NCBI RefSeq assembly: GCF_024223415.1 | Contig: NZ_CP100500.1 | From: Escherichia coli | GTDB taxonomy: Bacteria > Pseudomonadota > Gammaproteobacteria > Enterobacterales > Enterobacteriaceae | Strand: one strand, 5' to 3' | DNA length: 64,000 bases | Shown: piece by piece, positions 10,872 through 44,331 of the stretch | Position numbering within the stretch: the stretch's first letter is position 1 | How the letters are laid out: each line of letters begins with the position of its first letter | Translations under genes and position numbers: made by a program | The notes under the pieces: generated by a model | What the model was told of the DNA's origin: nothing | The model's database searches: none | What the model saw: the letters and a program-made list of their open reading frames with translations, nothing else

Positions 10872-12530
<1,659 letters not shown>

Positions 12531-31143: not shown

Positions 31144-31175
31144 AAAAAAACCAACCTTTACGGTTGGTTTTTTTT
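31144..31175. terminator. Bidirectional hairpin terminator, likely the ancestral proL terminator displaced by the island
   Basis: An A-run, an ACCAACC-tttac-GGTTGGT hairpin and a T-run lie directly next to the degenerate copy of the tRNA 3' end. Confidence 0.7.
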
Positions 31176-31177
31176 GG

Positions 31178-31206
31178 GATTTTTGGTCCACGAGAGTAGT
31201 TTAATT
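31178..31206. repeat. Distal att repeat, a degenerate copy of the proL 3' end
   Basis: gattttTGGTC-CACGAGAGtagTTTaAtt aligns with gatt-TGGTCGGCACGAGAGgaTTTgAac at 42416-42445. The minus strand reads CTCTCGTG--GACCA, against CTCTCGTGCCGACCA for the tRNA end. Confidence 0.65.
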
Positions 31207-31257
31207 GAGTGTGTAACCACATGATTTTAAATAATATGCTTGATTCAACTTTTAAAT

Positions 31258-31278
31258 CGTATAACCAAACGTATAACT
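31258..31278 (+). repeat. Two direct CGTATAAC(C/T) motifs, candidate integrase arm-type sites at the distal end
   Basis: CGTATAACC at 31258 and CGTATAACT at 31270. The same 9-mer occurs four times next to int at 42236-42285. Confidence 0.55.
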
Positions 31279-31447
31279 AAAATCATTTGCTGAAAAAGTG
31301 TACAATTTAAAGGCGAGTTTTCCCAGAGGTTTATTAAACTACGAAAATTTCGTAGTTTGTGAATATATTCCGGCCTGCTGGTTAACAGTCCTCAGATGTG
31401 AGGGATGTAGCCAGCGCAATTTTGCGCTTTGCTTTAATCTCAGTCAG

Positions 31448-31729
31448 TTATCGCCGTAACCGCTCCGGCTTCTTCCAGTGGTACGTAATTTTTTCTTTCT
31501 CCCGATACAGTTCAACGCGGCGATTGTAGGCCAGCATTTCCAGAACGCGGATCCGTATGTCGCGCATATCCACGCCGTTAAGCTCAATACCGTCACGGCG
31601 CATCACCTCAGCAACCACACGCGCATAATTTTCGGCGGTCACGCTGTCCGGCTGCGTGGCCTGTTCGTCAGCCTGCTGGCTGATTCCGGCAACGCGACGG
31701 ATTAATCGCAGTAGTTCGGCTTCTGTCAT
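31448..31729 (-). CDS. Hypothetical 93-aa protein flanking cos-1
   Basis: The ORF has a plausible composition, is the last gene before the island end, and abuts the cosQ side of cos-1. I do not recognise the family. Confidence 0.55.
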   Translation of the reverse strand: MTEAELLRLIRRVAGISQQADEQATQPDSVTAENYARVVAEVMRRDGIELNGVDMRDIRIRVLEMLAYNRRVELYREKEKITYHWKKPERLRR

Positions 31730-31763
31730 TGTGCCCCCATCGTTCTGATAGTCTGGTGTCGTC

Positions 31764-31989
31764 GGGTCCTTCCTGGAATTATGGCCCGTTACGGGGCGTC
31801 GACCTCGCGGTTTTTCGCTATTTATGAGATTTTTTGAGGGGGTGGTTGTTGTTTAATTGTTTGGTATATCTAATTGATAAGTAAGGTAAAAATAAAATAA
31901 ATACAACAACCTTACGGTGTATTTTGATGTCATTAATGTGAAAAAATTCAATGATATCAAATGGTTTTGTAAAAACATATGGTTGTTGT
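31764..31989 (+). other. cos-1: lambda-type cohesive-end site (cosQ GGGTCCT, cosN, cosB with GGTTGTTGT repeats), reading rightward
   Basis: gggtccttcctggaattatggcccgttacg|GGGCGTCGACCT|cgcggtttttcgctatttatgag aligns with the lambda junction GGGTCCTTTCCGGTGATCCGACAGGTTACG|GGGCGGCGACCT|CGCGGGTTTTCGCTATTTATGAA. The 12-nt end equivalent is at 31794-31805. Confidence 0.8.
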
Positions 31990-32163
31990 ATCGCGTATTT
32001 GATGGCGTAACAGAAAGTGATTTTTAACTTTACCGCTCTGTAACTACGGATTATTCCATGCTGGCACGGAGAACGGCTACGGCATGACGCCACCCAGCCT
32101 ATACAGAACAGTAAAGCCGATAAATTGTTAATCACGCGCAGCAATGCGTGTGATTTTTGCACA

Positions 32164-32359
32164 CTTCCGGTTAACGGGTACGATGTCCGGTTTGTTTGTA
32201 CATTTTTTGCACATGTCCGGTTCGCAGAAAGCATGTTTTTATATTTTTCATATAGTTAACTTGCAGAGAAACCGGACATGGATCCCGAAAAATTTTCATA
32301 AATAGTGAAAACGCGCGAGGTCGACGCCCCGTAACGGGTCCACATGCCGGAAAGGACCC
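32164..32359 (-). other. cos-2: second lambda-type cos site in inverted orientation (cosB with ATGTCCGGTT repeats), reading leftward
   Basis: The minus strand reads gggtcctttccggcatgtggacccgttacg|GGGCGTCGACCT|cgcgcgttttcactatttatgaaaattttc. The 12-nt end equivalent is at 32329-32318. Confidence 0.8.
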
Positions 32360-32361
32360 GC

Positions 32362-32384
32362 AAAAAAAGCCGGATTTCTCCGGC
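32362..32384 (-). terminator. Rho-independent terminator ending the capsid operon
   Basis: The minus strand reads GCCGGA-gaaa-TCCGGC followed by TTTTTTT, 7 nt after the stop of the 137-aa gene. Confidence 0.8.
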
Positions 32385-32390
32385 CTTGTC

Positions 32391-32804
32391 TCAGATGGTT
32401 TTCAGTATGCGATCGATGTTGCCGTCATCGACCGGGTTTCTGCCATCGTATGCCATGCCAGCTGATACGGCTTTCGGGCTGTGCATGTCCATAAAGTTTT
32501 CAAAGGCTGAAGTAAGCTGTGGTGCAACCTTCGGGCGTTCCTGCTCTATGGTCATGCTAAGGATGCTTTTAGCCGTACCAACATCGATACAAGGCACGTT
32601 AGCCATTGCACGTAACAGCGGCTGGTAGTCGTCAGATTCATGAAGCGCCATAATCGCATCAGCGCGCTGCTTGTCCTGTTCTTCCAGTTTGTTTAGTCGG
32701 TGTATGGCCTCGTAGGTTGATAAACCTCTGTCAGCCATTGCCCGCGCTTCGGCTTTAAATTTACTCGCCAGCGGTAGCGTCATGATACTTTCATTCGTTG
32801 CCAT
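32391..32804 (-). CDS. Hypothetical 137-aa protein, last gene of the capsid operon (possible scaffold or size-determination factor)
   Basis: The ORF is tightly spaced after the decoration gene and has an acidic, helical-looking sequence. I do not recognise the family. Confidence 0.6.
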   Translation of the reverse strand: MATNESIMTLPLASKFKAEARAMADRGLSTYEAIHRLNKLEEQDKQRADAIMALHESDDYQPLLRAMANVPCIDVGTAKSILSMTIEQERPKVAPQLTSAFENFMDMHSPKAVSAGMAYDGRNPVDDGNIDRILKTI

Positions 32805-32816
32805 CGTTCCCCCTGC

Positions 32817-33152
32817 TTATCGGGCCAGCGGCTGAACGGATACGCCGGAACCCGCAAAGGCGGCGCATTTTTTCGCATCGGTGTCGACGCTGTCAGGCCA
32901 GTTAACGGCGGCAATATTGAATATCCCCGTTTTGTAACACTGTGCTGATTTCTGCTTTGACGTGTCCACGGGGTGCGAAGTCAGATAAACAGCTTTGCCA
33001 GATTCCTGACCATCCCACGCCTTAAACTCGCCATTGTCTGCCAGCATCAGCGGGGTAAATTCCTGAATAACGCCAGCATCAGCGGCAAAATGTACCAGCG
33101 TCGTGGATACCTGCTGGCTGCCTGCAAATAACTCAATATATGGAGCGTCCAT
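32817..33152 (-). CDS. Head decoration protein, lambda gpD family
   Basis: TPLMLADNGEFKAWDG and YKTGIFNIAAVNWP...KKCAAFAGSGVSV align with lambda gpD TPLMLDTSSRKLVAWDG and YKSGTFRYEDVLWP...KKRTAFAGTAISI. Confidence 0.85.
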   Translation of the reverse strand: MDAPYIELFAGSQQVSTTLVHFAADAGVIQEFTPLMLADNGEFKAWDGQESGKAVYLTSHPVDTSKQKSAQCYKTGIFNIAAVNWPDSVDTDAKKCAAFAGSGVSVQPLAR

Positions 33153-33163
33153 AGAATCCCCCG

Positions 33164-34219
33164 TTAAGCAATTTTGACGGTAACAAATTTGCGAATATCT
33201 GCCGGTACCGGCTGCGGTGCGCTGTGCGTCTGCACGTACTCAATCGCCGGATCGCCGTCCTCAATCCAGTTTTTCGGGTAGTACATGTTTTGCGTTGCGC
33301 CCGTTCTTACCGCTTCCTGATCCATAATCGCACCATATGCCACAAGCCCTTTATTGTTGGTGTTACCCAGGACAAGCAAATCAGGCTCAAGGAAATATTT
33401 TTCGGTGCCGTCGCTGTCAGTGTATTTGCCGGAATAGACGATAAGGGCCAGATCACCAAGATAGCCTTTAAAGCTCACCACTTCGCCCAGGTTTTTACAG
33501 GCCAGCTCGGCGGCGGATTCTGAGCCACGGTAAAGATCGTACAGTTCACGGAATTTTTTAAAGCTGCGTAATGTGCGCCATGCCTCACCGCCCATAATCA
33601 TGACGTTGGCGGGGCAACCTGCCTGATCAGCATAAAGCTCGATGTCATAGATTGGGTCGTGCATGTCTTTATCCTGCTGGGACCATTTTTTACCACTGGC
33701 CTGCTGTATGATGCAGTTTTCCGGTATTTTCCAGTCGATTTCATAGCGTTCTATGCCTTCGCCCTCAATGATGTTTTTTCCGGTCGTTACCGCATTCACC
33801 GCCAGCCATTCCACGCGCGCCTTAATGGCGTTTATCTGGCGGCGCATGTTGCCAGTAATCAGGCGCATACGGCGGTAAGTTGGATCGTTAAGCTGTGCCG
33901 GATCTTCTCCAGCCATGCGCATGATGGTCTTTGTTGGATCGATTTCGTGCTTTGGCTTCATGTAGCCTGGTTTAATCGTGCTGGTTTCGTACCCTTTATC
34001 GCGCTGGACCTGACTACCCACCATAGGAGAACAGAACGCTGACATCGTAACCTCTTCAATGTCCAGGGTGTCCAGCATGATGTTTTGGGTGTTGAAGGTC
34101 GCCACGTTCGGGAAAAACAGCGTGGTAAACAGCGGACTAAATTTAAATTCCGAAATATCCCCGCGATTCAGGTACGCGAAAAGCTGGTTAGTTGTAAGTG
34201 CCGTTGCTTTGCCTGTCAT
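33164..34219 (-). CDS. Major capsid protein, lambda gpE family
   Basis: FKFSPLFTTLFF, PGYMKPKHEIDP, DPTYRRMRLI, IVYSGKY and YPKNWIEDGDPAIEY align with lambda gpE FKFDPLFLRLFF, PGYVKPKHEVNP, DPAYRRRRII, VVYSGQY and YPKNWVTTGDPAREF. Confidence 0.9.
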   Translation of the reverse strand: MTGKATALTTNQLFAYLNRGDISEFKFSPLFTTLFFPNVATFNTQNIMLDTLDIEEVTMSAFCSPMVGSQVQRDKGYETSTIKPGYMKPKHEIDPTKTIMRMAGEDPAQLNDPTYRRMRLITGNMRRQINAIKARVEWLAVNAVTTGKNIIEGEGIERYEIDWKIPENCIIQQASGKKWSQQDKDMHDPIYDIELYADQAGCPANVMIMGGEAWRTLRSFKKFRELYDLYRGSESAAELACKNLGEVVSFKGYLGDLALIVYSGKYTDSDGTEKYFLEPDLLVLGNTNNKGLVAYGAIMDQEAVRTGATQNMYYPKNWIEDGDPAIEYVQTHSAPQPVPADIRKFVTVKIA

Positions 34220-34425
34220 TATTCACCTCCGTGAACCTGATTGATACCCAGCGCCGCACGTAAATAGGTACGCACCTGCCAGCCTGTTGACGGCTCAACC
34301 ATCGCCAGCGGATCAAGTCCTGCCGCAATGCCTGCTTTTACATTCTGCTGGTGGCGTTCCTTGAGCGCCTCCACGATGTCGGGGCTTATGTAGACCGTCA
34401 CCCCGCCTTTTTTCTCTTCTGCCAT
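34219..34425 (-). CDS. Hypothetical 68-aa protein, first gene of the capsid operon
   Basis: The RBS AGAGGAA precedes the ATG, and the stop overlaps the capsid gene start (ATGA coupling). Confidence 0.6.
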   Translation of the reverse strand: MAEEKKGGVTVYISPDIVEALKERHQQNVKAGIAAGLDPLAMVEPSTGWQVRTYLRAALGINQVHGGE

Positions 34426-34459
34426 AGTCAGAAATTCCTCTTTGACTTAAAAAATCATA

Positions 34460-34509
34460 ACTGGATGTTCATCCAGTCCTGATTATAATCATGATTGCAT
34501 TTTGCGCAA
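34460..34509 (-). promoter_or_regulatory. Candidate sigma70 promoter of the capsid operon with an overlapping palindromic operator
   Basis: The minus strand reads TTGCGC (34509-34504), a 16-nt spacer, then TATAAT (34487-34482). The inverted repeat ACTGGATG-aa-CATCCAGT (34477-34460) follows at about +1. Confidence 0.5.
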
Positions 34510-34592
34510 CAATATTGAGTTACGTTGCAAATTATGAAATGATTATCCCGATCATGTGTGCCAGTGCACCATAAAAAACCTCGTATACAAAA

Positions 34593-34630
34593 GCCCGATA
34601 AGCCCCCTGTGACCTTATCGGGCTTTTTTT
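34593..34630. terminator. Hairpin terminator upstream of the capsid promoter
   Basis: GCCCGATAAG-11 nt-CTTATCGGGC hairpin followed by TTTTTTT on the plus strand and by TTTTG on the minus strand. Confidence 0.6.
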
Positions 34631-34636
34631 AGGCGT

Positions 34637-34658
34637 AAAAAAGCCGGATTGCTCCGGC
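34637..34658 (-). terminator. Rho-independent terminator after the ProQ/FinO-like gene
   Basis: The minus strand reads GCCGGA-gcaa-TCCGGC followed by TTTTTT, 26 nt after the stop at 34684. Confidence 0.75.
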
Positions 34659-34683
34659 TTCGTCTCTTCATGTGGTCAGGGTT

Positions 34684-35278
34684 TTATGCTTTCCGTACGC
34701 CCGAGGAACTGGCATTTTTCAGAATAATATTATGCCCTGCTGGTGGCTTACCGTTATGCTTATTTTCTGCCTTCATGTTTCTGCGCTCCTGCTGTTTTTT
34801 CTTCATCTCATCCAGTCGCTTCCCCGCGTTCAACTGGTGCTCCTGTGTCACCTCCCCGCACGGATGGCCTTTCAGGTCGTAACGCACGCCACCAGCCATC
34901 AGGGAACGGTAATATCGCACTGAACTGACATAATACGCCAGCGTTGCGCGAAGCGCTCCCTGACCTAATGAAATACCTCTCGCAGTAATATCCTCCATCA
35001 GGTCATCAAATATGCCAACCTTAAGCGGTCTGGGCGATTCCTGGCTGAAAAGTTCAGGCCAGAGCGCGGCAAGGCGTTCAACGCGTCTGATATTTTTTTT
35101 CCGGCTCTTTTCTGATTTGCGTTTTGCTGCCGTCTTCTGTTGTGTTTTCTGCTCGCGGCTCTGCTTTTGCGCTGGTGTGGTTTTATCCGGCTGTTCAGCC
35201 TCCTGCGTCTTTTTCTGCGGTGTGCCGTATATGCCTTTTGGTTTTCGGTTAATGGTCAGCTTTGTCATGTTCTCCCCC
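34684..35278 (-). CDS. ProQ/FinO-domain RNA-binding protein with a lysine-rich N-terminal tail
   Basis: PRPLKVGIFDDL...LRATLAYYVSSVRYYRSL..GGVRYDLKGHPCGEVTQEH aligns with E. coli ProQ ARPLKIGIFQDL...LRSALRLYTSSWRYLYGV..GATRVDLDGNPCGELDEQH. The preferred start is MTKLTINRK at 35278, behind the RBS AGGGGGAG. The track ORF extends to 35364. Confidence 0.8.
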
Positions 35279-35347
35279 TTTGTGCTGTTCCACCAGCGGC
35301 ATCTGCTACCCCGTGTCGCTCCCGCTGGTGTCGTGTTTCCCCGCCTG

Positions 35348-35668
35348 TTAATAACCGTCATCATTTACGTTATCAGGGTAATCACGCCATATTTCATCAG
35401 TAAGCGACGGTAGCCCCATCTGTTGTATTGTCCTGTCTGCGGCCCTTCTGACTGCGTGAACATCATAACGGTTTTCAGGTATCGGGCGCTTTGCCTTCCT
35501 GATACATTCCCTTGCTCTCATTGCCGCAAGTTCTCTGTGCCTGTCTTCCTGAAGAGTAATCATCACATCCTGCCACCTTCTGGCAGCCCGTCGCCACAGT
35601 CCCCTGCTCTCGAGTTCTTCTGCTGTCGCGTCGCTTATTGTCCGGTTCTTCGGTGTGCTGTTGTTCAT
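35348..35668 (-). CDS. PerC-family (PerC/Pch-like) transcriptional regulator
   Basis: This is a 106-aa ORF. The N-terminal AEELESRGLWRRAARRW motif resembles the PerC signature. The call is made from memory of the family only. Confidence 0.55.
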   Translation of the reverse strand: MNNSTPKNRTISDATAEELESRGLWRRAARRWQDVMITLQEDRHRELAAMRARECIRKAKRPIPENRYDVHAVRRAADRTIQQMGLPSLTDEIWRDYPDNVNDDGY

Positions 35669-35685
35669 GTTGCTCCCCGCCTGAT

Positions 35686-36096
35686 TCAGAAGGGTATATC
35701 ATCTCCGTAGGGGTCATCGCCTCCCGCTGGTGGCTCATTCCCCTGTGTGCCTGTGGTTTTGCGTCTGTTCCCGCCATGACGTGCCGCACGCGCACTGATT
35801 ACGCTGTCTGCGATAACCTGCCAGCCCTGCCGCGTTTCCCCGTTCTGTCCGGTCCACTGGCTCACCTGCATGTTACCCGCCACGCTCAGGAGTTCACCTT
35901 TGCGGTGCTTTGCCAGTGCTTCGGCCTGTCTGCCAAACGCCAGCACAGATAACCACATCGTCGCCGTTCCGTCATCTGCCTGGCTGCACGGAAGGGGGAC
36001 CGCCATACTCGCCATCGCCATTTGTGTCCCCTTGCTGGTGGTCTTTAACTGCGGGTCAGCCACCAGCCGCCCGTAAGCCGCTATCTGTGCTGTCAT
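35686..36096 (-). CDS. ssb: Single-stranded DNA-binding protein
   Basis: It has an OB-fold N-terminus (GRLVADPQLKTTSKG...WLSVLAFGRQAE), a Gly/Pro-rich linker and the canonical acidic tip DDIPF. Confidence 0.85.
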   Translation of the reverse strand: MTAQIAAYGRLVADPQLKTTSKGTQMAMASMAVPLPCSQADDGTATMWLSVLAFGRQAEALAKHRKGELLSVAGNMQVSQWTGQNGETRQGWQVIADSVISARAARHGGNRRKTTGTQGNEPPAGGDDPYGDDIPF

Positions 36097-36344
36097 GCTG
36101 TATGCTCTCCGGTTTTAACGTTGATGGTTGTCACCTGTTCCGCTCCGGCAATCTCCCGTTCTGTCAGCGTGGCAAAATTTGCCGCTACCGTTGTCATGAA
36201 TGCGCTTATCAGTTCGGGATGTGCTTTCGCGTATCCTTCTCCCGCGTGGCGGTCTATCGTTCTGATTGCCACCTTTAAGGCGTGCTCTGTCATGTCTAAC
36301 GCTTTATATTTTGGCGCTGTCTTATCTCTGGTTTTTCTGTTCAT
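36093..36344 (-). CDS. Hypothetical protein (83 aa from MNRKTRDK)
   Basis: The track ORF is 36093..36374. Its first 10 codons are translated iteron repeats, so the start at 36344 is preferred. It overlaps the ssb start. Confidence 0.55.
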   Translation of the reverse strand: MNRKTRDKTAPKYKALDMTEHALKVAIRTIDRHAGEGYAKAHPELISAFMTTVAANFATLTEREIAGAEQVTTINVKTGEHTA

Positions 36345-36555
36345 TCCCCACCACTCCCCACTTTTGCTCCCCACTTTTTAAATTCCCCACTTGCTCCCCA
36401 CCTCGTTTTTTGAGTGAATCTAATGCTTTGTTTTTCATTGCGTTTTTTACTCCCCACTTTTTTGGATGTATACAGGTGGGAAAGTGGGGAATTATGTTTC
36501 AATTTTGTTAAATTCCCCACTCTCCCCACTTTTACTACCCACTTTTTACAGTGGG
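36345..36555. repeat. Iteron-type replication origin: about 13 copies of YCCCCAC(T) flanking an AT-rich spacer
   Basis: Direct copies are tccccac, ctccccact (x4), ttccccac (x2), tctccccact and tacccact. Inverted copies are gtggga, gtgggga and gtgggta. The AT-rich core is at 36411-36448. The region lies immediately 3' of the helicase gene. Confidence 0.7.
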
Positions 36556-37961
36556 TAAACATCATCCCCATCGACACAAATCACGCCGTCTTTTTCCAGC
36601 TTGGACAGCCAGCGCCGGAAGTGCTTCATCTCATACCCCAGCTTTTTCATATCGTCGCGGAGAAGGGCGATAGTGCATGGCTCTTTGTGTGCCGTCCGCG
36701 TTCTGATGCACTGCCATAGCGCGGTATGGTTTTCCGTCTTGTTGCCTGCCTCCTCGATGCGCTCCAGTTCAACGGGAGAGCGCGGCTTATCAACCACCAC
36801 CAGCGACGTGATTAACTCCCCGTCAGCGTCGGTAAAAAGCTCCACCACGCGTAAATCGTAGGCGGCCTCTTTCAGTTCCTCCGCGTCCTTCATTTTGGTG
36901 CAGGATATAACCAGGGCTTTACTGTCTGCACCTTCTCGGCGAATACGGTATTCAGCGTCCAGAGATGCACGAAATGCACTGGAACCACGCGCCCCCTTTG
37001 TTTCATCCTTGCCGGAATGGTGGACCACCAGCACCGTGGCCCCTGTGCGTCGTTTCAGGTCGTCACATCCACGGATAAACGCCCCCATATCCCGCGCGTC
37101 ATTTTCATCATTACCGCCAAAGCAACGCGCCAGCGTATCCAGAATAATCATGCGTACCGGTTTACCCGTTTCCCGTTCAACCTGGCGGGAAGCGATAACC
37201 ATTTCATCAACATCAAGCGGGGCTGCCGGAAAAATCGGGCGGTTTACCAGGTACAGATTTTTCACCCGTTCATCATTAACGATTTCCCATGCCTTGATAC
37301 GACGGGGGACACCAATGCCACCTTCACCGACAACATACATCACCGAACCATGCGCCACCCTGCGGCCTCCCCAGTGGCGCCCCGTGGCAACATGACACGC
37401 CCAGGAACACGCAAGGAATGATTTATAGGAACCGCTCGCACCGTATGTGCTGCACAATGAATTAGCCGGAATCACGCCCTTAACGACATAATCAAGCTGT
37501 GTGTCGTATCCTGCAGATCCAATGCTCATGGGTAGCGTGGTTTTTCGCTGGCTGTATTGCTCATCAGTAAGTATTTCCCCGCGCTCTGCCTGTTCGCGGA
37601 TCCGTTGCAGGTAGTCGCGCCATTCCTCCCGCTTCTGGCTGTGCATTCCCTCGGGGTAATAACTCGCATCCCGTATACCTGCCGCCGCCAGTTTTTGCCC
37701 GATGGCATTAATATTTGATGGCTTGATGTGGCCTGCCTTGTACAGCCGGACACAATAGCGACCATCGTCGATAATTTTCAGGTCTGCCAGTTCGTCAAGC
37801 TGACTGTCTCCCAGCCATACTGGCGGGACGTTATCGCCAGCAAGTCGCCCGTCCTGTTCCTGCCATTGTTTTGCGTGCGCCCAGGCATCACTACCTGCAA
37901 AAATAATGACTTCGGTCATTTTGTTGTGTGGCTGTTTTTTTAAGTTCGGTGCCAGTTTCAT
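36546..37961 (-). CDS. Replication initiator helicase (RecA-fold, RepA/DnaB-like AAA_25 type) with a C-terminal winged-helix domain
   Basis: This is a 471-aa ORF with a Walker A-like GASGSYKS, Walker B MIILDTLARCFGG and the motif VLVVHHSGKD. The start is coupled to the upstream gene (ATGA). Confidence 0.8.
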   Translation of the reverse strand: MKLAPNLKKQPHNKMTEVIIFAGSDAWAHAKQWQEQDGRLAGDNVPPVWLGDSQLDELADLKIIDDGRYCVRLYKAGHIKPSNINAIGQKLAAAGIRDASYYPEGMHSQKREEWRDYLQRIREQAERGEILTDEQYSQRKTTLPMSIGSAGYDTQLDYVVKGVIPANSLCSTYGASGSYKSFLACSWACHVATGRHWGGRRVAHGSVMYVVGEGGIGVPRRIKAWEIVNDERVKNLYLVNRPIFPAAPLDVDEMVIASRQVERETGKPVRMIILDTLARCFGGNDENDARDMGAFIRGCDDLKRRTGATVLVVHHSGKDETKGARGSSAFRASLDAEYRIRREGADSKALVISCTKMKDAEELKEAAYDLRVVELFTDADGELITSLVVVDKPRSPVELERIEEAGNKTENHTALWQCIRTRTAHKEPCTIALLRDDMKKLGYEMKHFRRWLSKLEKDGVICVDGDDVYPL

Positions 37962-38257
37962 TTTTTATCCCTGAATCCGTTAATCATGGTTTTCATCTTC
38001 TGAATATTGGCGCGTGCTTTCTCCCTGCTGGTTGGTTTACTGCGGGGCGCTGCCTGTACCAGAGAAAAATCACGCCGGAACTGATAAACAGGCATCACGC
38101 AGTCATATTCGTAGCCATCACGGCGGTAAGTGATGCGCCGTTCTGCCACGCCTTTAATCGTTACCGTACCGCCGTAGTTATCACGGAAAATATCGCCGGG
38201 ACGGATTTCAGGCCGAGCGGGGCCGCTGGCAGTAAAGCCAGAATTTTTCTTTTTCAT
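37958..38257 (-). CDS. Hypothetical 99-aa protein (possibly DUF4222-like)
   Basis: The ORF is coupled to the helicase gene, and small proteins of this type commonly precede satellite primase/helicase genes. The family assignment is only a recollection. Confidence 0.55.
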   Translation of the reverse strand: MKKKNSGFTASGPARPEIRPGDIFRDNYGGTVTIKGVAERRITYRRDGYEYDCVMPVYQFRRDFSLVQAAPRSKPTSREKARANIQKMKTMINGFRDKK

Positions 38258-38261
38258 GGTT

Positions 38262-38462
38262 TTATTTTCCTGTCAGTGATTCCGGCTTTATTCCGGCGCG
38301 AATACAGGCTTCAGAAAAAAAAGCCAGAGAACCAATAACCTCATTATTTCTAAGGCGGCATTGCGATTTCACTTTCCCTTTATCCAGGAATATCAAAACG
38401 CGCCCCGTATAATCAGATGGCACATTAAGCACTACAGGTAAGTGCGCTTCATGATTATTCAT
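38262..38462 (-). CDS. Hypothetical 66-aa protein
   Basis: The start MNNHEAHLPV at 38462 lies behind the RBS CAGGAGGTGG and overlaps the upstream stop (ATGAATAA). The track ORF extends to 38531. Confidence 0.6.
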   Translation of the reverse strand: MNNHEAHLPVVLNVPSDYTGRVLIFLDKGKVKSQCRLRNNEVIGSLAFFSEACIRAGIKPESLTGK

Positions 38463-38898
38463 GGCTAACCACCTCCTGGAATTTTCTTCTGTAACGCGCC
38501 TCTGCCACATATTCAGCATAGTCCGACGCAATATTGAGAATATCGCTACCCGTTCCTGAATGTTCGGCGGTTTCCAGTAAAAAACATGCAGCTTTTACCA
38601 TGTCAGCAACACATAACAGCGCAATATCTGTATCTTCCGGTGTGCCATCAAATTCCTGTTTCAGGGCATTAAAACGATCATCACGCATAACCCCATATTC
38701 ACAATCAGCAATCAGGATGGCTTTGGCCTCATTCAGTGCCATATCAGCGGTAAGCTGTGCGTAGGCCAGCAAATGCGGGATTATTGCCCCTGTATATTCC
38801 GGCTCTCTGATAATGTGGTCGGATGTGTTGATTAAATAGTTTGTGCGAAAAATGCACCTGTAACCATCAGTTAACAACGGATATACAGGGGGGACCAT
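38455..38898 (-). CDS. Hypothetical protein (about 147 aa if started at MVPPVY; the true start is uncertain)
   Basis: The C-terminal ~130 aa have protein-like composition (..ALNEAKAILIADCEYGVMRDDRFNALKQEFDGTPEDTDIALLCVADMVKAACFLLETAEH..) and the stop is coupled to the next gene. No strong RBS precedes 38898. Confidence 0.5.
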   Translation of the reverse strand: MVPPVYPLLTDGYRCIFRTNYLINTSDHIIREPEYTGAIIPHLLAYAQLTADMALNEAKAILIADCEYGVMRDDRFNALKQEFDGTPEDTDIALLCVADMVKAACFLLETAEHSGTGSDILNIASDYAEYVAEARYRRKFQEVVSHE

Positions 38899-39681
38899 GA
38901 ATGATAAGGGGGTGCCGTTTGATGTGCTCCTGCAAAAGCTGAATGCTGCACGCGCCGCAAGGGAACGTGAGCGCATGAGTAATAACCCTGTCCCTCCTGA
39001 ATTACCTCGCCCTGAACATTTTCCGCTTGAGGATTTCATCAGGGGACGAATCCGAACAAAACGATAACCGCCGCCGTGATATGAGGCATCACGACGCAAT
39101 GCATTACAGGTGAGCACCATGAACAAATCCATATTATCCCCCACAGTTCTGGACGTAAACACAAAGCAGCGACAGATATTATTACGCGCCGTCATTAAAG
39201 CCAGACACGAGAAATTAAACCAAATCTTAAAATAAGATACGCCGCTACCGCTGTAAGTCTTCATCAGAAACAGAAAACGCCAGAGCAGATGAGCACGGAG
39301 GTAACTCTTTATGAAAATAAACGAATCAGGGGAAATTACCGAAGCCAGCGTGGTACGCCAGCGGAGGCGGGAACGACGGGTACGGCCCCCCGCGCCATCC
39401 GATAATTTCCCGCTTGAGCGCTTCATCAGTGAACGGCCCCGCATACGCTGGAACGGCACAACCCCATACCCCGAGGAGAGACAGACAAAAAACAAACAGC
39501 GATGATGAAATCTGGAGGCCAATACCATCACGCAGCCATCAGGAGATTGCTGACGCGCTTCCTGTTCGCTGGTGGCCTCGATGGTAATCACGCGCGGTTG
39601 TGCAGTGCTCAGGGCGATAAAACGCCACACAAAGGCCGTTTGTGTGTGCGCAAGGCGTGGGGTATGCTGTGTTCCAGCCAT
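38455..39681 (-). CDS. Icd-like (host cell-division inhibitor-like) N-terminus continuing without a stop into the downstream gene. This may not be a single real protein.
   Basis: A strong RBS AGGAG lies 7 nt before the ATG at 39681. The sequence MAGTQHTPRLAHTQTAFVWRFIALSTAQPRVITIEATSEQEARQQ resembles Icd-like proteins of P4-type elements. The following ~260 codons are R/S/C-rich and junk-like, yet stop-free. Confidence 0.35.
   Translation of the reverse strand: MAGTQHTPRLAHTQTAFVWRFIALSTAQPRVITIEATSEQEARQQSPDGCVMVLASRFHHRCLFFVCLSSGYGVVPFQRMRGRSLMKRSSGKLSDGAGGRTRRSRLRWRTTLASVISPDSFIFIKSYLRAHLLWRFLFLMKTYSGSGVSYFKIWFNFSCLALMTARNNICRCFVFTSRTVGDNMDLFMVLTCNALRRDASYHGGGYRFVRIRPLMKSSSGKCSGRGNSGGTGLLLMRSRSLAARAAFSFCRSTSNGTPLSFMVPPVYPLLTDGYRCIFRTNYLINTSDHIIREPEYTGAIIPHLLAYAQLTADMALNEAKAILIADCEYGVMRDDRFNALKQEFDGTPEDTDIALLCVADMVKAACFLLETAEHSGTGSDILNIASDYAEYVAEARYRRKFQEVVSHE
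38897..39067 (+). CDS. Candidate small ORF (56 aa), paralogous to 39311..39505
   Basis: A G-rich RBS (GGGGGG) precedes the ATG. It shares ..FPLE.FI..R.RIR with the second ORF. It is antisense to the long minus-strand frame. Confidence 0.3.
   Translation: MNDKGVPFDVLLQKLNAARAARERERMSNNPVPPELPRPEHFPLEDFIRGRIRTKR
39311..39505 (+). CDS. Candidate small ORF (64 aa), paralogous to 38897..39067
   Basis: The RBS GGAGG lies 8 nt before the ATG. It shares the NFPLERFISERPRIR block with the other ORF. Confidence 0.3.
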   Translation: MKINESGEITEASVVRQRRRERRVRPPAPSDNFPLERFISERPRIRWNGTTPYPEERQTKNKQR

Positions 39682-39808
39682 AATCGTTACTCCTGTTAAC
39701 GGTTTGGTTAGACGCCCTGCATGTGTGCCACCACTGCGGGGCGTTGTTTTTGTGGTGTCATTGGTATACATTGTCACCTTAATGGCATTATCACTACAGA
39801 GGTTTATC

Positions 39809-39985
39809 ATGTCAACCAATGACAACAAAAAAGAAAGATTTTCCGTACAACTACGCCTAGACGCAGATTTGTTCGAGCGTTTAAGTATTGCCATGAAAGA
39901 AGATGGCGACGATAACCGATCTGGATGGATCAAAAGGCTTTTACGACGCGAATTAGATAAACGCGGCATTGAGTCAAAAAGCTGA
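39809..39985 (+). CDS. Ribbon-helix-helix (Arc/MetJ/CopG-like) DNA-binding protein and candidate island repressor. It is the only convincing plus-strand gene in the island.
   Basis: MSTNDNKKERFSVQLRLDADLFERLSIAMKEDGDDNRSGWIKRLLRRELDKRG has the beta-strand/helix/helix pattern typical of RHH proteins. An AGAGG RBS precedes it, and a terminator follows at 40079-40107. Confidence 0.6.
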   Translation: MSTNDNKKERFSVQLRLDADLFERLSIAMKEDGDDNRSGWIKRLLRRELDKRGIESKS

Positions 39986-40078
39986 CAGCCAACCAGCAAG
40001 CCAGCACACTGATCACATTGCCCACCAGCCGCAAATGTGGCATTGTTGGTGATGCTTTTGTTTTCCCTTGTTCCCACT

Positions 40079-40107
40079 GGCGACCCTTTTGCGGTCGCCT
40101 TTGTTTT
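40079..40107 (+). terminator. Plus-strand rho-independent terminator downstream of the RHH gene
   Basis: GGCGACC-cttttgc-GGTCGCC hairpin followed by TTTGTTTT. Confidence 0.65.
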
Positions 40108-40203
40108 GCCTGTTATCCGGCAATTGTGGCGCTTCGCCACACGGTTTATATAACCCCACTGCTCAGATTCATTTTTTGCGCAGTAGGTTAATTGTTCGCA
40201 AGG

Positions 40204-40230
40204 GCGGCTCCTTATCGGGGCCGCTTTTTT
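40204..40230 (+). terminator. Second plus-strand terminator, possibly the 3' end of a small antisense RNA
   Basis: GCGGCTCC-ttatc-GGGGCCGC hairpin followed by TTTTTT. It is not functional in the minus orientation, where no U-run follows. Confidence 0.55.
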
Positions 40231-40256
40231 CGTGTTTGTCATATCTGTGATACCCG

Positions 40257-40463
40257 TTAAGCAGCCGTTCCGCGTGCTTCCTGTTCGCGTTCTTTCTGCC
40301 AGGCCAACACATCATCCTCATACCATCCGCGACGGCGTAAACCAACGCGAAAACCCTGCGGAAATTCTCCGGCGTTGATCATGCTTTGCAGCGTGCTGTC
40401 TGCCTTGATGTGGATAATTTTTTTTACTTCCTGGCGAAAGATAATTTTTCTGATTGCTTCCAT
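40257..40463 (-). CDS. alpA: AlpA-family regulator/excisionase (MerR-type wHTH)
   Basis: This is a 68-aa ORF. The sequence ...STLQSMINAGEFPQGFRVGLRRRGWYEDDVLAWQ is typical of the AlpA/prophage CP4-57 regulatory family. Confidence 0.8.
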   Translation of the reverse strand: MEAIRKIIFRQEVKKIIHIKADSTLQSMINAGEFPQGFRVGLRRRGWYEDDVLAWQKEREQEARGTAA

Positions 40464-40481
40464 CGTGATTTACCTTGTGAA

Positions 40482-40498
40482 TCCGGTGTATTCCGGTG
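40482..40498. repeat. Two TCCGGTG motifs 10 bp apart just upstream of alpA
   Basis: The sequence is aTCCGGTGtatTCCGGTGac. The same heptamer is phased at 10 bp three times at 42386-42412, next to the att core. Confidence 0.6.
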
Positions 40499-40596
40499 AC
40501 AAATACGGTAAATCATCGGATATGGGTAAAAACAGTTCCCACCGTTTTTAAACGGTATACACCGTTTTTTATATTGATGATTTGAAATGGAATTAT

Positions 40597-40619
40597 AAAA
40601 AAAGCGGCATTTCTGCCGC
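40597..40619 (-). terminator. Rho-independent terminator after the int-orf83 unit
   Basis: The minus strand reads GCGGCA-gaaa-TGCCGC followed by TTTTTTT. Confidence 0.75.
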
Positions 40620-40630
40620 TTCCAGGATTG

Positions 40631-40882
40631 TTACCGCCATTTTTTGGGCCTGCCTCCGATCTTCATAGATGCCGGACGTACGACCTTATCAATACTTACC
40701 GCCAGATTTCTGGAAGCGCCACGGGATACCAGAAAATCTACTACCTGTTTTTTTGATGGGGCCGTCGTCCTGTCCTCCGGATCGTAGGTTGACCAAAATT
40801 CATGCTGAACCATCAGGGCCAGTTGCAGCCCGTCGCAATTGCATCTGATATTTTTTTGCATCTTAACGGTTTCATGTTTCAC
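40631..40882 (-). CDS. Hypothetical 83-aa protein downstream of int
   Basis: The ORF ends in a basic C-terminus (GGRPKKWR). I do not recognise the family. Confidence 0.5.
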   Translation of the reverse strand: MKHETVKMQKNIRCNCDGLQLALMVQHEFWSTYDPEDRTTAPSKKQVVDFLVSRGASRNLAVSIDKVVRPASMKIGGRPKKWR

Positions 40883-40959
40883 GGCCTTGTCGTTAAATTT
40901 GATGCAATTATACGACGGTTTTACATGGTTTTCGTAGTTTTTACTGGTTTTCTGTACAG

Positions 40960-42219
40960 CTACACGGCTCGGATACCCCTTTTACCACTGGCGAGGGTTA
41001 CGCCCGTCGCCGCAGCCTCGACAAATTCGCCCCACCAGCGCATCAGCACGATGCGTTTTTCTATGTAGTTGCTCCGGTTGTATGCCCGTCTAACTTCGTT
41101 GGTGTCGACGTGGGCAAGTGCCGCCTCTATTACGTCCGGCTCGAATCCTTCCTCGTTCGCTGCTGTGCTGAATATGGCGCGTAATCCATGAGACACCAGC
41201 ACGCCAGCGAATCCCATACGCCGCAATGCTGCGTTAGCTGTCTGGCTGTTCATCGGCTGCTGTGGGTCTTTCAGACTTGGGAAAACGTAATTGCGGTGGT
41301 GGCTGATTGGTTTCATGGCCTCCAGCACCGCCATAGCCTGACCGGAAAGCGGGATAACGTGATCCCTGCGCATCTTCATGCGTCCGGCAGGTATCGTCCA
41401 TTGCTTCGCGTCCAGGTTGATTTCATCCCACCGCGTTGATGACGCTTCGGCGGGACGGGTTACGGTCAGTAACTGCCATTCAATCAGTAATCTGGTCTGC
41501 CGTTCTGTTGCCGATACTGATAAAGCCTGCATAAGCTCGGGCAGCTGTTCGGGGCGGATTGTTGGCATATGTTTTTTTACAGGTGAGGGAAACGCCTTAC
41601 GCACATTCATAGCCGGATTGGCATCAATCAGCCCACTGTTGGCGGCGTAATCCATTACCTCATTAACGCGCTGTAAAACCCGCTTGAGTGTTTCCAGGTT
41701 GCCGCGCTCCTTGATGGGGGTAAGCACTTCAACGAACCTTCGGGCGGTGAGGGTATCTATTGGCGTGTTGCCGATGAACGGGAATACATATTTATCCAGC
41801 GAACGCCAGATGTCTTTAATCGTGTTGGGGGCCAGATTCTGGCTGATTTTCACCTGGTACCATGCCGCCGCCACATTTTCGAACGTGTTCCCTTGTCTTC
41901 GGGCCTCTGTCTCTCTTTTTTGCCTCTCGTGGTCCTGCGGGTCAGTTCCGGCACTGATTAACGTCCTGTACTCGCTACGGCGTTTTCTGGCATCAGCCAG
42001 GGAAACATCTTCAAGCGATCCAAAACTCAGCAATATTCTTTTTTTGTCCGATGGTCGGTAGTAGGAAAATCTCCAGAGTTTTGATCCAGACGGTTTGACC
42101 AGGAGAAAAAGCCCTCCGCCGTCCTGCAGGGTGTACTCCTTTTGCGCTGGTCTGGCTGCTTTGATCTGCACTGTGGTTAATGGGTGTGTTTTTCTCGCCA
42201 TATGTCTATGATTCCACAC
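40960..42219 (-). CDS. int: Tyrosine integrase, P4/CP4-57 (DUF4102 N-terminal arm-binding) type
   Basis: The N-terminus reads LTTVQIKAARPAQKEYTLQDGGGLFLLVKPSGSKLWRFSY. The catalytic region contains HGLRAIFST..ALAHV and RAYNRSNY. An alternative start MARKTHP lies at 42201. The gene is adjacent to the tRNA. Confidence 0.9.
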   Translation of the reverse strand: MWNHRHMARKTHPLTTVQIKAARPAQKEYTLQDGGGLFLLVKPSGSKLWRFSYYRPSDKKRILLSFGSLEDVSLADARKRRSEYRTLISAGTDPQDHERQKRETEARRQGNTFENVAAAWYQVKISQNLAPNTIKDIWRSLDKYVFPFIGNTPIDTLTARRFVEVLTPIKERGNLETLKRVLQRVNEVMDYAANSGLIDANPAMNVRKAFPSPVKKHMPTIRPEQLPELMQALSVSATERQTRLLIEWQLLTVTRPAEASSTRWDEINLDAKQWTIPAGRMKMRRDHVIPLSGQAMAVLEAMKPISHHRNYVFPSLKDPQQPMNSQTANAALRRMGFAGVLVSHGLRAIFSTAANEEGFEPDVIEAALAHVDTNEVRRAYNRSNYIEKRIVLMRWWGEFVEAAATGVTLASGKRGIRAV

Positions 42220-42235
42220 GAAAAAACAGGGTTTT

Positions 42236-42285
42236 AGTTATACGGCTTTAGTTATACGTCAGCCCGTATAACTAAACGTATAACT
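42236..42285. repeat. Four CGTATAACT motifs (two inverted, two direct), candidate integrase arm-type sites
   Basis: AGTTATACG at 42236 and 42250; CGTATAACT at 42265 and 42277. They lie directly upstream of int. Confidence 0.6.
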
Positions 42286-42385
42286 AAAAAATCCGGCTGA
42301 TAGCTTATAAATCCGGTGATGTTCGGTGACTAAAAAACATAAAAAAACCCGCCAATCAAGTGATTAGCGGGTTATCCCTGTCTTA

Positions 42386-42412
42386 TCCGGTGCTTTCCGG
42401 TGATATCCGGTG
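42386..42412. repeat. Three TCCGGTG motifs at exact 10-bp phasing abutting the tRNA 3' end
   Basis: The sequence is taTCCGGTGcttTCCGGTGataTCCGGTGgg. Confidence 0.65.
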
Positions 42413-42419
42413 GGCGATT

Positions 42420-42496
42420 TGGTCGGCACGAGAGGATTTGAACCTCCGACCCCCGACACCCCATGACGGTGCGCTACCAGGCTGCGCTACGTGCCG
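42420..42496 (-). tRNA. proL: tRNA-Pro (anticodon GGG)
   Basis: The minus strand reads CGGCACGTAGCGCAGCCTGGTAGCGCACCGTCATGGGGTGTCGGGGGTCGGAGGTTCAAATCCTCTCGTGCCGACCA. It is 77 nt with cloverleaf-compatible arms and an encoded CCA. Confidence 0.92.
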
Positions 42497-42570: not shown

Positions 42571-44331
42571 TCAGTTAGCGATAAAACGCTTCTCGTCTGT
42601 CAGTACTTGCAATAACAAACTTAACTGTGGTTTTTCATCTTTCACTCTTTCACCACGTAAGTTGTAAGTGCGGTATTTACCGTTATTGTTCAGCACCAGC
42701 GTCTTTTTCGGGGTGGTAATTGCCAGCGTATCGTTATCCGCTGCGGTAACCCAGTAATGACGGCGTTGAGGGTTGAACAAATCCTGACCTTGCGAATATT
42801 CGCTGGCAGGTGTGCTGACATGTAGCAGGCGTTGCATCAGCGTCGTCATCAGATCGGTATGATCAGTCAGCGCATTAATACGCTGCGCCGGCGTGCCTGG
42901 CCAGTGAATCACTAATGGCACCTGCAGGTGACCGTGGGACCAGTCAAAGGTTTCTTCCTCTTCGCTCAGTGGAATACCCCGACCGGCAGTGATAATCACC
43001 ACCGTATTGCCCAGTTTGCCAGAATCACGCAGTGCATTGAGCACGCGGTTGATCTGGTCATCGACATTGCCTGCCGCCCGGCTATATTTCCGTGCAAATG
43101 CCTGCTGATTGCTGTCGTCAATGTTGGTGCCATTGAAAGAGACCCACGAGAACCAGCGGTTATCTTCTTGTGCGTAGCGTCCCAGCCAGTTGATCCACTG
43201 CGTGGCGGTCTGCTCGTCGGATTGGGTGCGTACGCTCGGCATCGAGAAATCTGACAACAATGCCTGACGATAAAGCGGACTGGTAAAGCCATCTGACGAG
43301 AATAGGCCCAACTGATAGCCTTGCTGGTTGAGAGCGGTAATTAACGCCGCAGGCGTACGGGTCGACAGAATGCCGTCCATATAGCTCGGTGAGATGCCAT
43401 AGAACAGGCCAAAGATGCCGTTGTCTGTAGTGTTGCCGGAGCTCATATGGCGCGTGAACGAAATATTTTGCTCAGCAAAACCTGCCAGCGCAGGCATCTG
43501 CTTCTCGAAGCGTGAGTAGTTCAGGCCATCGACAGTAATCAACAAGACATTCTGCCCGGTGCCCATATCGCGATAGCGCAGTTCGCTTAACGGATACTGA
43601 ACGGAAACGGCGTCTGGATTACCTTGCTCAATAAGACGGCGTTGATACTCCTGTGCATCAAGCAGGCCATGCTTTTCAAGAAAACGTCGCGCCGTCATCG
43701 GGTACGAAAGCGGCAGGTTAGCGCGCTGCATGGTGATCGGGCGATAGAAGTTGGCATCGGCCCAGATATACACCACATGCGAGGCGATAAAGGCGATAAA
43801 TAAGAATGCGGCCAGCGGACGCGCGAAGCGCCGACGACGCGTCAGGCTGCGCAGCTTTTGCCAGCTCCACGTCGCAAACACCAGTTCAAGCAATAAAATA
43901 ACCGGCACGCTGATGAACATCAGCTGCCAGTCGCGCGCCATCTCATTTTCGTCTGGGTTGATAACCAGTTGCCAGACGATGGGATTAAGATGGAGATGGA
44001 AACGAGTAAAGACTTCGCTATCGATCAGTAATAGCGTCATTCCCGCCGTTGCCAGAATGACGGACAAAAACCTCATCAGCCTCTGGGAGCCGACGATAAA
44101 GGTCAGCGGGAAGAGGATCAGCAAGTAGGTGGCGAACACCAGGAAGCTGAAATGGCCGATAATGCTTACGTAGGAATAAATGCGACCAGCAAGCGTGGTC
44201 GGCCAGTCGGCGATAAACAGGTAACGGCTGCCAATGACGAGCGAAAGCAGAATATTGAACAGTGCAAACCAGTGCCCCCAACTGACCATCTGGGAGACTT
44301 TTTCACGGTAGCGCTGACGATGAGTTACCAT
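42571..44331 (-). CDS. yejM: Inner-membrane LPS/cardiolipin homeostasis protein YejM (PbgA/LapC)
   Basis: This is a 586-aa ORF with five N-terminal transmembrane segments and a sulfatase-like periplasmic domain. Confidence 0.92.
   Translation of the reverse strand: MVTHRQRYREKVSQMVSWGHWFALFNILLSLVIGSRYLFIADWPTTLAGRIYSYVSIIGHFSFLVFATYLLILFPLTFIVGSQRLMRFLSVILATAGMTLLLIDSEVFTRFHLHLNPIVWQLVINPDENEMARDWQLMFISVPVILLLELVFATWSWQKLRSLTRRRRFARPLAAFLFIAFIASHVVYIWADANFYRPITMQRANLPLSYPMTARRFLEKHGLLDAQEYQRRLIEQGNPDAVSVQYPLSELRYRDMGTGQNVLLITVDGLNYSRFEKQMPALAGFAEQNISFTRHMSSGNTTDNGIFGLFYGISPSYMDGILSTRTPAALITALNQQGYQLGLFSSDGFTSPLYRQALLSDFSMPSVRTQSDEQTATQWINWLGRYAQEDNRWFSWVSFNGTNIDDSNQQAFARKYSRAAGNVDDQINRVLNALRDSGKLGNTVVIITAGRGIPLSEEEETFDWSHGHLQVPLVIHWPGTPAQRINALTDHTDLMTTLMQRLLHVSTPASEYSQGQDLFNPQRRHYWVTAADNDTLAITTPKKTLVLNNNGKYRTYNLRGERVKDEKPQLSLLLQVLTDEKRFIAN

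Follow-up and report, generated by a model that had tools for sequence, protein, structure and literature searches.

The prototype of the Gram-negative cos-type phage-inducible chromosomal islands (PICIs) is EcCICFT073, which occupies the ycfD-phoQ site (Fillol-Salom 2018, 2019). It carries a capsid homologue (c1499), a head-decoration homologue (c1500), a PerC protein and two functional lambda-like cos sites, its induction is AlpA-dependent and its DNA is packaged at phage size (PMC6092414). According to the published packaging model, Rpp retargets the TerS of the helper to a PICI-specific cosB, and deletion of rppA strongly lowers the transfer of EcCICFT073 by lambda and phi80, with cos2 alone being insufficient (PMC6739421). 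The second cos site was left without explanation in the EcCICFT073 papers; the published papers compared PICI cos sites only with those of lambda, phi80 and CFT073 phage 4, and no phage cosB was reported. Here, an element of 11,236 bp integrated at proL is described from a 64,000-nucleotide stretch of the Escherichia coli contig NZ_CP100500.1 (assembly GCF_024223415.1), referred to below as the window. This element is very probably a classical Gram-negative PICI of the EcCICFT073 lineage that used its own tyrosine integrase to enter the proL 3' end, is packaged by helper phages and has lost rpp.

Judged from gene order and protein similarity, the island is a new mosaic within the EcCICFT073-type PICI family, located at an attachment site already known for PICIs, and its unusual trait, the loss of rpp together with the presence of two phage-type cos-cosB units, makes its packaging module a variant one. 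The island and EcCICFT073 are alike in size (~11.2-11.4 kb), both contain two convergent lambda-like cosN, and they share one gene order: an integrase, an AlpA-type regulator, an opposite-strand ribbon-helix-helix (RHH) gene, an Icd-like open reading frame (ORF), small ORFs, a DUF4222/RgdR protein, a replicase with iterons at its 3' side, a further small ORF, a single-strand DNA-binding protein (SSB), PerC, orf68, the capsid protein, gpD, orf137, the paired cos and orf93. Protein identity to EcCICFT073 amounts to 93% for orf68, 95% for the major capsid protein as well as for gpD, 91% for orf137, 89% for orf93, 82% for SSB, 74% for the DUF4222 protein and 39% for PerC. The two differ in the att site and in the integrase (24% identity), in the replicase, which is a P4-type primase in EcCICFT073 and a RepA/AAA_25 helicase here, in the additional FinO-domain gene of the island and in its rearranged regulatory region. 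In the packaging region, EcCICFT073 has an Rpp-dependent cosB and rppA, the only interference gene known in the prototype, whereas the island lacks both, keeps a 3' remnant of rpp alone and has a second phage-type cos-cosB instead. This collinearity, the att site and the gene content bear out the logic of a phage-inducible chromosomal island recognised in the original prediction, made from the DNA letters alone. Its further view, that gpE/gpD-type capsid genes, lambda cos, ProQ/FinO and PerC form a combination outside the named satellite families, did not hold, since EcCICFT073 also has gpE and gpD homologues, two cos and PerC, with a capsid module 89-95% identical; when compared with known PICIs, capsid-forming PICIs (cf-PICIs) and P4-like elements, the island matches the classical PICIs and lies at an attachment site published for them.

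The boundaries could be fixed by alignment with E. coli K-12 MG1655, which carries the empty site: its junction is uninterrupted, and 102 bp contain the stop codon of yejO, the hairpin of a bidirectional terminator and the proL 3' end. The left junction of the island tracks K-12 through TTGGGATTTTTGGTC, then CACGAGAG, and diverges thereafter, and the right junction rejoins K-12 at TTTGGTCGGCACGAGAGG; the alignment of K-12 with both junctions therefore places the island between direct repeats, 16-18 bp long, of the proL 3' end. The only tRNA gene found by ARAGORN is proL itself, tRNA-Pro(GGG), at 42420-42496 on the minus strand, and the locus has yejO (28491-31082, plus strand) on one side and yejM (42571-44331, minus strand) on the other. 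The G+C content of the island is 49.8%, as against 50.5-52.1% in the flanks. The end features are as follows.

31144-31174: yejO/proL bidirectional terminator, directly before the left att repeat
31181-31196: left att core repeat, a degenerate proL 3' end reading TTTGGTC--CACGAGAG with a 2-nt deletion (alignment with K-12 and the right junction)
31258-31281: integrase arm-type repeats of the left end, two copies of CGTATAAC at 31258 and 31270 (sequence)
42237-42284: integrase arm-type repeats CGTATAAC of the right end (sequence)
42346-42373, minus: island-borne terminator, now located 3' of proL (terminator search)
42417-42434: right att core repeat TTTGGTCGGCACGAGAG, inside the proL 3' end (ARAGORN and K-12 alignment)

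The location proposed originally, between genes that are neighbours in K-12 and with ends formed by the proL 3' end and a degenerate copy of it beside the displaced terminator, is thus confirmed, including by the empty-site check that had been suggested. The left-end arm repeat matches the repeat listed for yejM-site PICIs in Table S1 of PMC6092414, where yejM-luxR/aidA, the proL site, is given as a PICI attachment site; its occupants are EcCIATCC25922, EcCIED1a.1, EcCI11128, EcCI11368.1 and two Shigella islands (PMC6092414). Together, the att repeats, the K-12 empty site and the published list place the island at a PICI attachment site, as expected of a Gram-negative PICI. As a separate observation, yejO is an intact ORF of 863 aa in this genome (28491-31082, plus strand), while IS5 splits the gene in K-12, strain 135 has a frameshift in it and STEC2017-197 an internal stop.

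The most distinctive part of the island is its packaging region, in which two convergent lambda-like cosQ/cosN lie between orf137 and orf93.

31762-31835, plus, pointing rightward: cos1, consisting of cosQ-like GGGTCCTTCCTGG and cosN at 31794-31810 (sequence scan)
31836-32009, plus: cosB-A, phage-type, an AT-rich stretch surrounded by three copies of GGTTGTTGT (at 31843, at 31904 in inverted orientation, and at 31981; similarity to prophage cos-cosB)
32024-32098, minus: rpp remnant, the last 23-25 codons only (tblastn with RppA and two homologues)
32183-32312, minus: cosB-B, phage-type, with R3 CCATGTCCGGTTTC, an AT-rich IHF-like stretch, R2 GAACCGGACATG and R1 AAACCGGACATC
32313-32366, minus, pointing leftward and convergent with cos1: cos2, consisting of cosN at 32313-32329 and a cosQ-like element (sequence scan)

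A double cos had been noted in the original prediction and two cosN are indeed present, with the correction that the sites are convergent and have a truncated rpp remnant between them. A convergent cosN pair was also found in every related PICI scanned (EcCICFT073, the Nissle 1917 island, L011 and L012), and the slot that it flanks holds rppA in EcCICFT073 and a full TerS homologue in the Nissle island. In the island studied here this slot is ~500 bp long with 37.6% G+C, and no gene is annotated in it by PGAP. The rpp remnant corresponds to residues 123-147 (74-80% identity, E 1e-5 to 2e-7), and neither the rest of the island nor the remainder of the window gave a further rpp or terS match in tblastn with RppA and its homologues. 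An intact rpp with its cognate Rpp-dependent cosB beside cos1, as in Rpp-type cos PICIs, is accordingly missing, and the homology to the EcCICFT073 cos1 region ends at position 11105 of the EcCICFT073 locus (L008), before its cosB. A 138-aa ORF between the cos sites (31818-32234) was considered and rejected as a gene, having neither a family match nor a PGAP call; as it spans the two cosB regions, it was treated as non-coding.

Each cos site is followed by a complete cosB resembling that of a different group of lambdoid phages. Over cos1 and cosB-A (31762-31994/32009), identity to the lambdoid prophages of strains EC28 and JB2 is 92-93% and extends through their cos-cosB to the terS start codon; over cos2 and cosB-B (32183-32366), the cos-cosB of phage PhiR12_1 matches at 89-91% as far as its Nu1 start. 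cosB-B is also 90% identical to the flank of the rpp-distal cos2 of EcCICFT073. Both flanks have the layout of lambda cosB, with one repeat, an AT-rich stretch and two repeats of opposite orientation, the repeat being GGTTGTTGT in cosB-A and CCGGACAT in cosB-B. The matching phage TerS proteins (EC28/JB2 type versus PhiR12_1) differ in the N-terminal DNA-binding region and share the C-terminal region, a pattern that fits two recognition specificities served by one type of large terminase. A phage-type cosB at one of two cos sites is also seen in PICIs that carry rpp: in EcCICFT073, L011 and L012 the flank of the distal cos is a near copy of a real lambdoid phage cosB, and in published PICIs such rpp-distal flanks are ~90% identical to complete lambdoid cosB, of PhiR12_1 type in EcCICFT073 (L008 11575-11840) and of EC28-prophage type in L012 (3912-4200).

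The distribution of this rpp-less cassette was followed in a prevalence sample of 5,426 complete E. coli genomes, of which 10 contain it at 96.7-99.8% identity. It was inspected at three att sites, among which its orientation and the accompanying integrase and replicase vary: at proL it occurs with the RepA helicase of this island; at roxA-phoQ in strain GF4 (L013) the integrase is another one and the cassette lies inverted with respect to the capsid operon; and at thiM-rcnR in strain ST130 (L014) the replicase is of the primase type. The opposite orientations of the segment between the cos sites (window 31836-32295 versus L013 12001-12460) suggest inversion by recombination between the inverted cos repeats. 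Strain GF4 carries two different PICIs whose cassettes are 99.8% identical (L013; GF4 5148515-5159914), which fits exchange or gene conversion between co-resident islands. The cassettes fall into two sequence classes ~3% apart, and none of the 14 differences between the two variants lies in the six R-repeat cores, a result that is not significant given the ~1.8 expected. From this distribution the cassette is probably not a one-off accident.

By analogy with EcCICFT073, a lytic lambdoid helper would switch on alpA, AlpA would then drive the one-directional operon, the integrase would excise the island, and the RepA-type helicase, the iteron origin and SSB would replicate it into concatemers. 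The helper terminase would recognise cos1-cosB-A or cos2-cosB-B directly and fill a lambda-type head; four island copies amount to 44.9 kb, or 0.93 lambda genome. Since two full cosB from two lambdoid TerS specificity groups coincide with the loss of rpp, packaging would most likely proceed directly by the unmodified terminase of either helper type, without an island-encoded packaging protein. Without Rpp, the island would probably not block its helper in the manner of EcCICFT073. A more far-reaching reading can be offered only tentatively: the rpp-less cassette might be a working "two-key" signal, in which two convergent cos, each with a complete cosB of a different TerS group, permit direct packaging by two helper classes; the second cos of EcCICFT073-type PICIs might then be a phage-type site for non-lambda helpers, and the segment between the cos sites an exchangeable and invertible helper-range module. 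Should the arrangement work, it would give a simple account of the determinants of helper range and of why PICIs keep two cos sites.

Several observations weigh against a functional, helper-packaged island. Given the need for rppA and cos1 in EcCICFT073, a rpp-less island may transfer poorly without a matching helper. The window contains no further cosN, and in strain 135, whose island is 99.9% identical, there is no second match to either cosB and no matching resident prophage. At the rpp remnant the junction is palindromic and resembles a rearrangement scar, the rpp-less cassette is rare (0.2% of genomes), and the AlpA assignment depends on synteny and a Pfam score of 17.6 bits, below the cutoff of 21. 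The rival that survives best, though it is considered rather unlikely, is that the island is a PICI by descent but defective: an inversion or deletion would have removed rpp and its cognate cosB, leaving packaging at background level and persistence by vertical descent and gene conversion. In keeping with this, rpp is cut to its last ~25 codons at the palindromic junction, efficient transfer of EcCICFT073 needs RppA and cos1 (PMC6739421), the full island is confined to four genomes of the sample, the near-identical cassettes of the two GF4 PICIs fit intragenomic conversion, and the Icd-like ORF has lost its normal stop codon. However, all other genes are intact, both cosB keep complete R3/AT-rich/R2/R1 architectures that match live phages, and the cassette exists in two classes, its backbones vary, three att sites harbour it and its hosts come from several continents.

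The assignment as a PICI is further supported by the composition of the island. The gene families were assigned by Pfam, PHROGs and NCBIfam searches. All main genes, from the integrase through orf93, are on the minus strand, with a weak RHH ORF alone on the plus strand. The genes upstream of the capsid operon are the following.

40960-42204, minus: tyrosine integrase with arm-DNA-binding domain (Pfam)
40631-40882, minus: orf83, 100% identical in the Nissle PICI
40257-40463, minus: AlpA-type helix-turn-helix regulator (weak Pfam AlpA match; 100% identity with the Nissle proL PICI regulator)
40079-40228, plus: terminators 3' of the RHH-like gene (terminator search)
39779-39985, plus: RHH-like gene resembling YlcI/YnfO, between alpA and the Icd-like ORF (weak NikR and YlcI_YnfO_N matches)
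39787-39815, minus: best sigma-70-like promoter of the island, TTGACA-17-GATAAT, facing the Icd/replication genes and overlapping an inverted repeat
39502-39681, minus: Icd-like domain ORF of ~60 aa (NF033153, 59 bits)
38455-38898, minus: 147-aa ORF, phrog_2512 (PHROGs, 2.3e-50)
38262-38462, minus: 66-aa conserved small ORF, phrog_340 (PHROGs)
37958-38257, minus: DUF4222 protein of the RgdR family, 99 aa (Pfam and comparison with RgdR)
36546-37961, minus: RepA-family (AAA_25) replicative helicase/initiator (Pfam, PHROGs)
36345-36550: predicted replication origin with at least eight GTGGGGA iterons, directly 3' of the helicase gene
36093-36374, minus: 93-aa conserved PICI ORF, phrog_1231 (PHROGs)
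35686-36096, minus: SSB (Pfam)
35348-35668, minus: PerC-family regulator (Pfam PerC 9.5e-27)
34684-35268, open to 35364, minus: FinO-domain (ProQ/FinO) protein (Pfam ProQ 2.1e-26; start 35268 per PGAP, L001)

By the criteria of Fillol-Salom et al. 2018, the organisation is that of Gram-negative PICIs, with an integrase, an AlpA-type regulator and an origin directly 3' of the initiator, and so is the size, within the 8-15 kb of such islands and without lysis, tail, portal or terminase genes. Nearly all genes named at the outset (int, orf83, alpA, the opposite-strand RHH, the helicase with its iterons, SSB, PerC and ProQ/FinO) were recovered by the family searches, although the name orf83b is inappropriate for an ORF of 93 aa. 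The absence of terminase, portal, tail and lysis genes was likewise corroborated, as no island ORF on either strand matches a terminase, portal, protease, tail or lysis family in Pfam or PHROGs. No PADLOC match to a defence system was obtained among ten island proteins. An Rfam scan of the island (E up to 0.1) yielded only proL and therefore no C4-like or other known RNA near the Icd-like ORF.

Over its first 131 residues the helicase shares 60% identity with the N-terminus of the P4-type primases found in EcCICFT073 and in the Nissle island, proteins to which it is otherwise unrelated, and this shared N-terminus points to domain shuffling between PICI replicases. The Icd-like domain is 70-76% identical to Icd-like proteins of other PICIs and the RHH-like gene shows 37% identity to an opposite-strand ORF in the ST130 island (L014). 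RgdR, encoded by O-island 51, is a regulator of motility and of LEE, the enterocyte effacement locus, and its R20C variant gives no stimulation of type III secretion (PMC3378721); residues 20-22 of the DUF4222 protein read PGD in the island as compared to RGD in RgdR and in the CFT073 copy. The FinO-domain protein scores under the NCBIfam cutoffs for ProQ and for FinO alike, and related chromosomal FinO-domain genes are found in ~1,075 complete E. coli genomes. PICIs commonly carry PerC homologues, and ProQ/FinO has been reported in an Enterobacter PICI (PMC13612085). In the PICI-like islands of E. coli O104:H4 (L009 8622-9436) and strain Z1323MEC0001 (L016 36-765), both of which lack capsid genes, the two genes lie side by side downstream of the replication genes, in the latter directly after SSB. 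Judged from these relatives, ProQ/FinO with PerC is not foreign to PICIs, and PerC, the FinO-domain protein and the RgdR-family protein may be regarded as putative accessory regulators.

The capsid genes and orf93 are arranged as follows.

34459-34478, minus: terminator-like hairpin upstream of the capsid operon (terminator search)
34219-34425, minus: orf68, first gene of the capsid operon, phrog_3255 (PHROGs)
33164-34219, minus: major capsid protein, gpE type (Pfam Phage_cap_E 1.7e-50)
32817-33152, minus: head-decoration protein, gpD type (Pfam HDPD 1.7e-17)
32391-32804, minus: orf137, probable Nu3-like scaffolding protein (phrog_1999)
32362-32389, minus: terminator hairpin after the capsid operon, GCCGGA-GAAA-TCCGGC followed by T7 (read from sequence)
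31448-31729, minus: orf93, conserved PICI protein, phrog_1561 (PHROGs)

The operon is bracketed by its two hairpins and is indeed terminator-insulated, as had been proposed. orf137, which is conserved in these PICIs, weakly matches the C-terminal, scaffold part of the head-protease family phrog_53 (9e-8) and is 36% identical to the C-terminus of PhiR12_1 gpC/Nu3; if it is Nu3-like, such islands would encode scaffold, capsid and decoration proteins. In the prototype, deletion of c1499 or of c1500 gave no phenotype (PMC6092414).

The frequency of the island and of its parts was also determined in the genome sample. The integrase is present at 90% identity or more in ~280 genomes, some part of the capsid/cos/PerC-ProQ segment (31400-35700) is matched in 1,759, and the EcCICFT073-type PICI family occurs in roughly a third of complete E. 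coli genomes, while at least 80% of this particular mosaic is found in only 4 of the 5,426, all at proL. The PICI model of SatelliteFinder (de Sousa et al. 2023) has five core components, an integrase, a regulator (AlpA/MerR/Stl), a primase-replicase, a capsid-morphogenesis gene and terS, with a Type B element having four of the five and being accepted as PICI (PMC10085698). The integrase, the regulator and a capsid gene are present, the replicase is the RepA/AAA_25 helicase, and beyond the 25-codon rpp remnant there is no match to terS or rpp. Lacking terS or a full rpp, the island would therefore rate as a Type B PICI, judged from the component list.

That the island represents a satellite family of its own, outside the P4-like elements, classical PICIs, cf-PICIs and PLE, is highly improbable. 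In favour of this view, a RepA helicase with ProQ/FinO and PerC in the absence of terS or rpp is a rare combination, and only four genomes carry at least 80% of the island, but every module has a close counterpart in described PICIs, the prototype has the same capsid genes and the same double cos, the attachment site is already published for PICIs, and the idea is contradicted by collinearity and by 89-100% protein identities to known PICIs. A remnant of a full-size lambdoid prophage, to which lambda-type cos and gpE, gpD and Nu3 homologues might point, is the least credible origin of all, as no match to the capsid protein exceeds 47% identity among 50,697 phage records (46% for that of the CFT073 icd-site lambdoid prophage) whereas identity among PICIs is ~95%, the head-gene order E-D-Nu3 is the reverse of that in lambda, the replication and regulatory modules are of PICI type, and every related locus inspected (L001, L002, L008, L011-L015) is likewise an island of ~11 kb that keeps this gene order, without morphogenesis genes contiguous to it, so that the check on related genomes suggested earlier does not reveal a decayed prophage. 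As a PICI, the island as a whole adds little beyond one more EcCICFT073-type mosaic; it is the packaging region that merits specialist attention.

One segment of the island stands apart from its PICI-type modules.

38899-39501: segment of 600 bp without a homologue on either strand, in which a ~30-bp repeat occurs three times in tandem

It is found in only 9 of the 5,426 genomes. On the minus strand it is spanned by a stop-free frame of 595 aa (38455-40242, 1.8 kb), which joins the Icd-like domain to the phrog_2512 ORF, is annotated by PGAP as one "Icd-like" protein and has no Pfam match. It is unlikely that a frame of this length stays open by chance, yet it is probably a read-through artefact. 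Of the Icd-like ORF proposed originally, the domain of ~60 aa is thus present, but it sits inside this larger frame, which is probably no real protein. The plus-strand ORFs within the segment are all in one frame. Those at 38897-39067, 39110-39235 and 39311-39505 were considered as phrog_21027, an opposite-strand small gene of other PICIs, and rejected, as the PICI genes match this family, the window ORFs do not, and tblastn gave nothing. A degenerate Ash gene, suggested by a 58-bp match to "ash family" pseudogenes, was also rejected, as the 595-aa frame has no Phage_ASH match and the matched stretch lies upstream of the Ash domain.

Beyond EcCICFT073, the island can be set against four groups of satellites. 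P4-like satellites resemble it in size (~11 kb), in integrating at a tRNA gene with a tyrosine integrase and in carrying an AlpA/Vis-type regulator and an Icd-like ORF, but they differ in having psu, delta, sid, Ash/epsilon and the alpha primase, to none of which a Pfam or PHROG match was found in the island, and their cos is of P2 type rather than lambda type. cf-PICIs also encode capsid proteins, but in addition a large terminase, portal, protease, HNH nuclease and head-tail connectors, with no match to these in the island. The likeness to SaPIbov5, a cos-type SaPI, is a functional analogy only: it has the cos site of its helper instead of terS and a capsid-protein homologue, but it belongs to an unrelated Gram-positive lineage with an Stl repressor, and its Ccm shrinks the capsid, while the capsid genes of E. 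coli PICIs are without a known phenotype. The PICIs of the yejM/proL site, EcCIATCC25922, EcCIED1a.1, EcCI11128, EcCI11368.1 and that of Nissle 1917, share the site, convergent cos and a capsid module 88-95% identical. The Nissle proL island (L002) differs in its P4-type primase, in the full-length TerS homologue between its cos sites and in having neither PerC nor ProQ, while it agrees with the island described here at 100% identity in the integrase, orf83 and AlpA.

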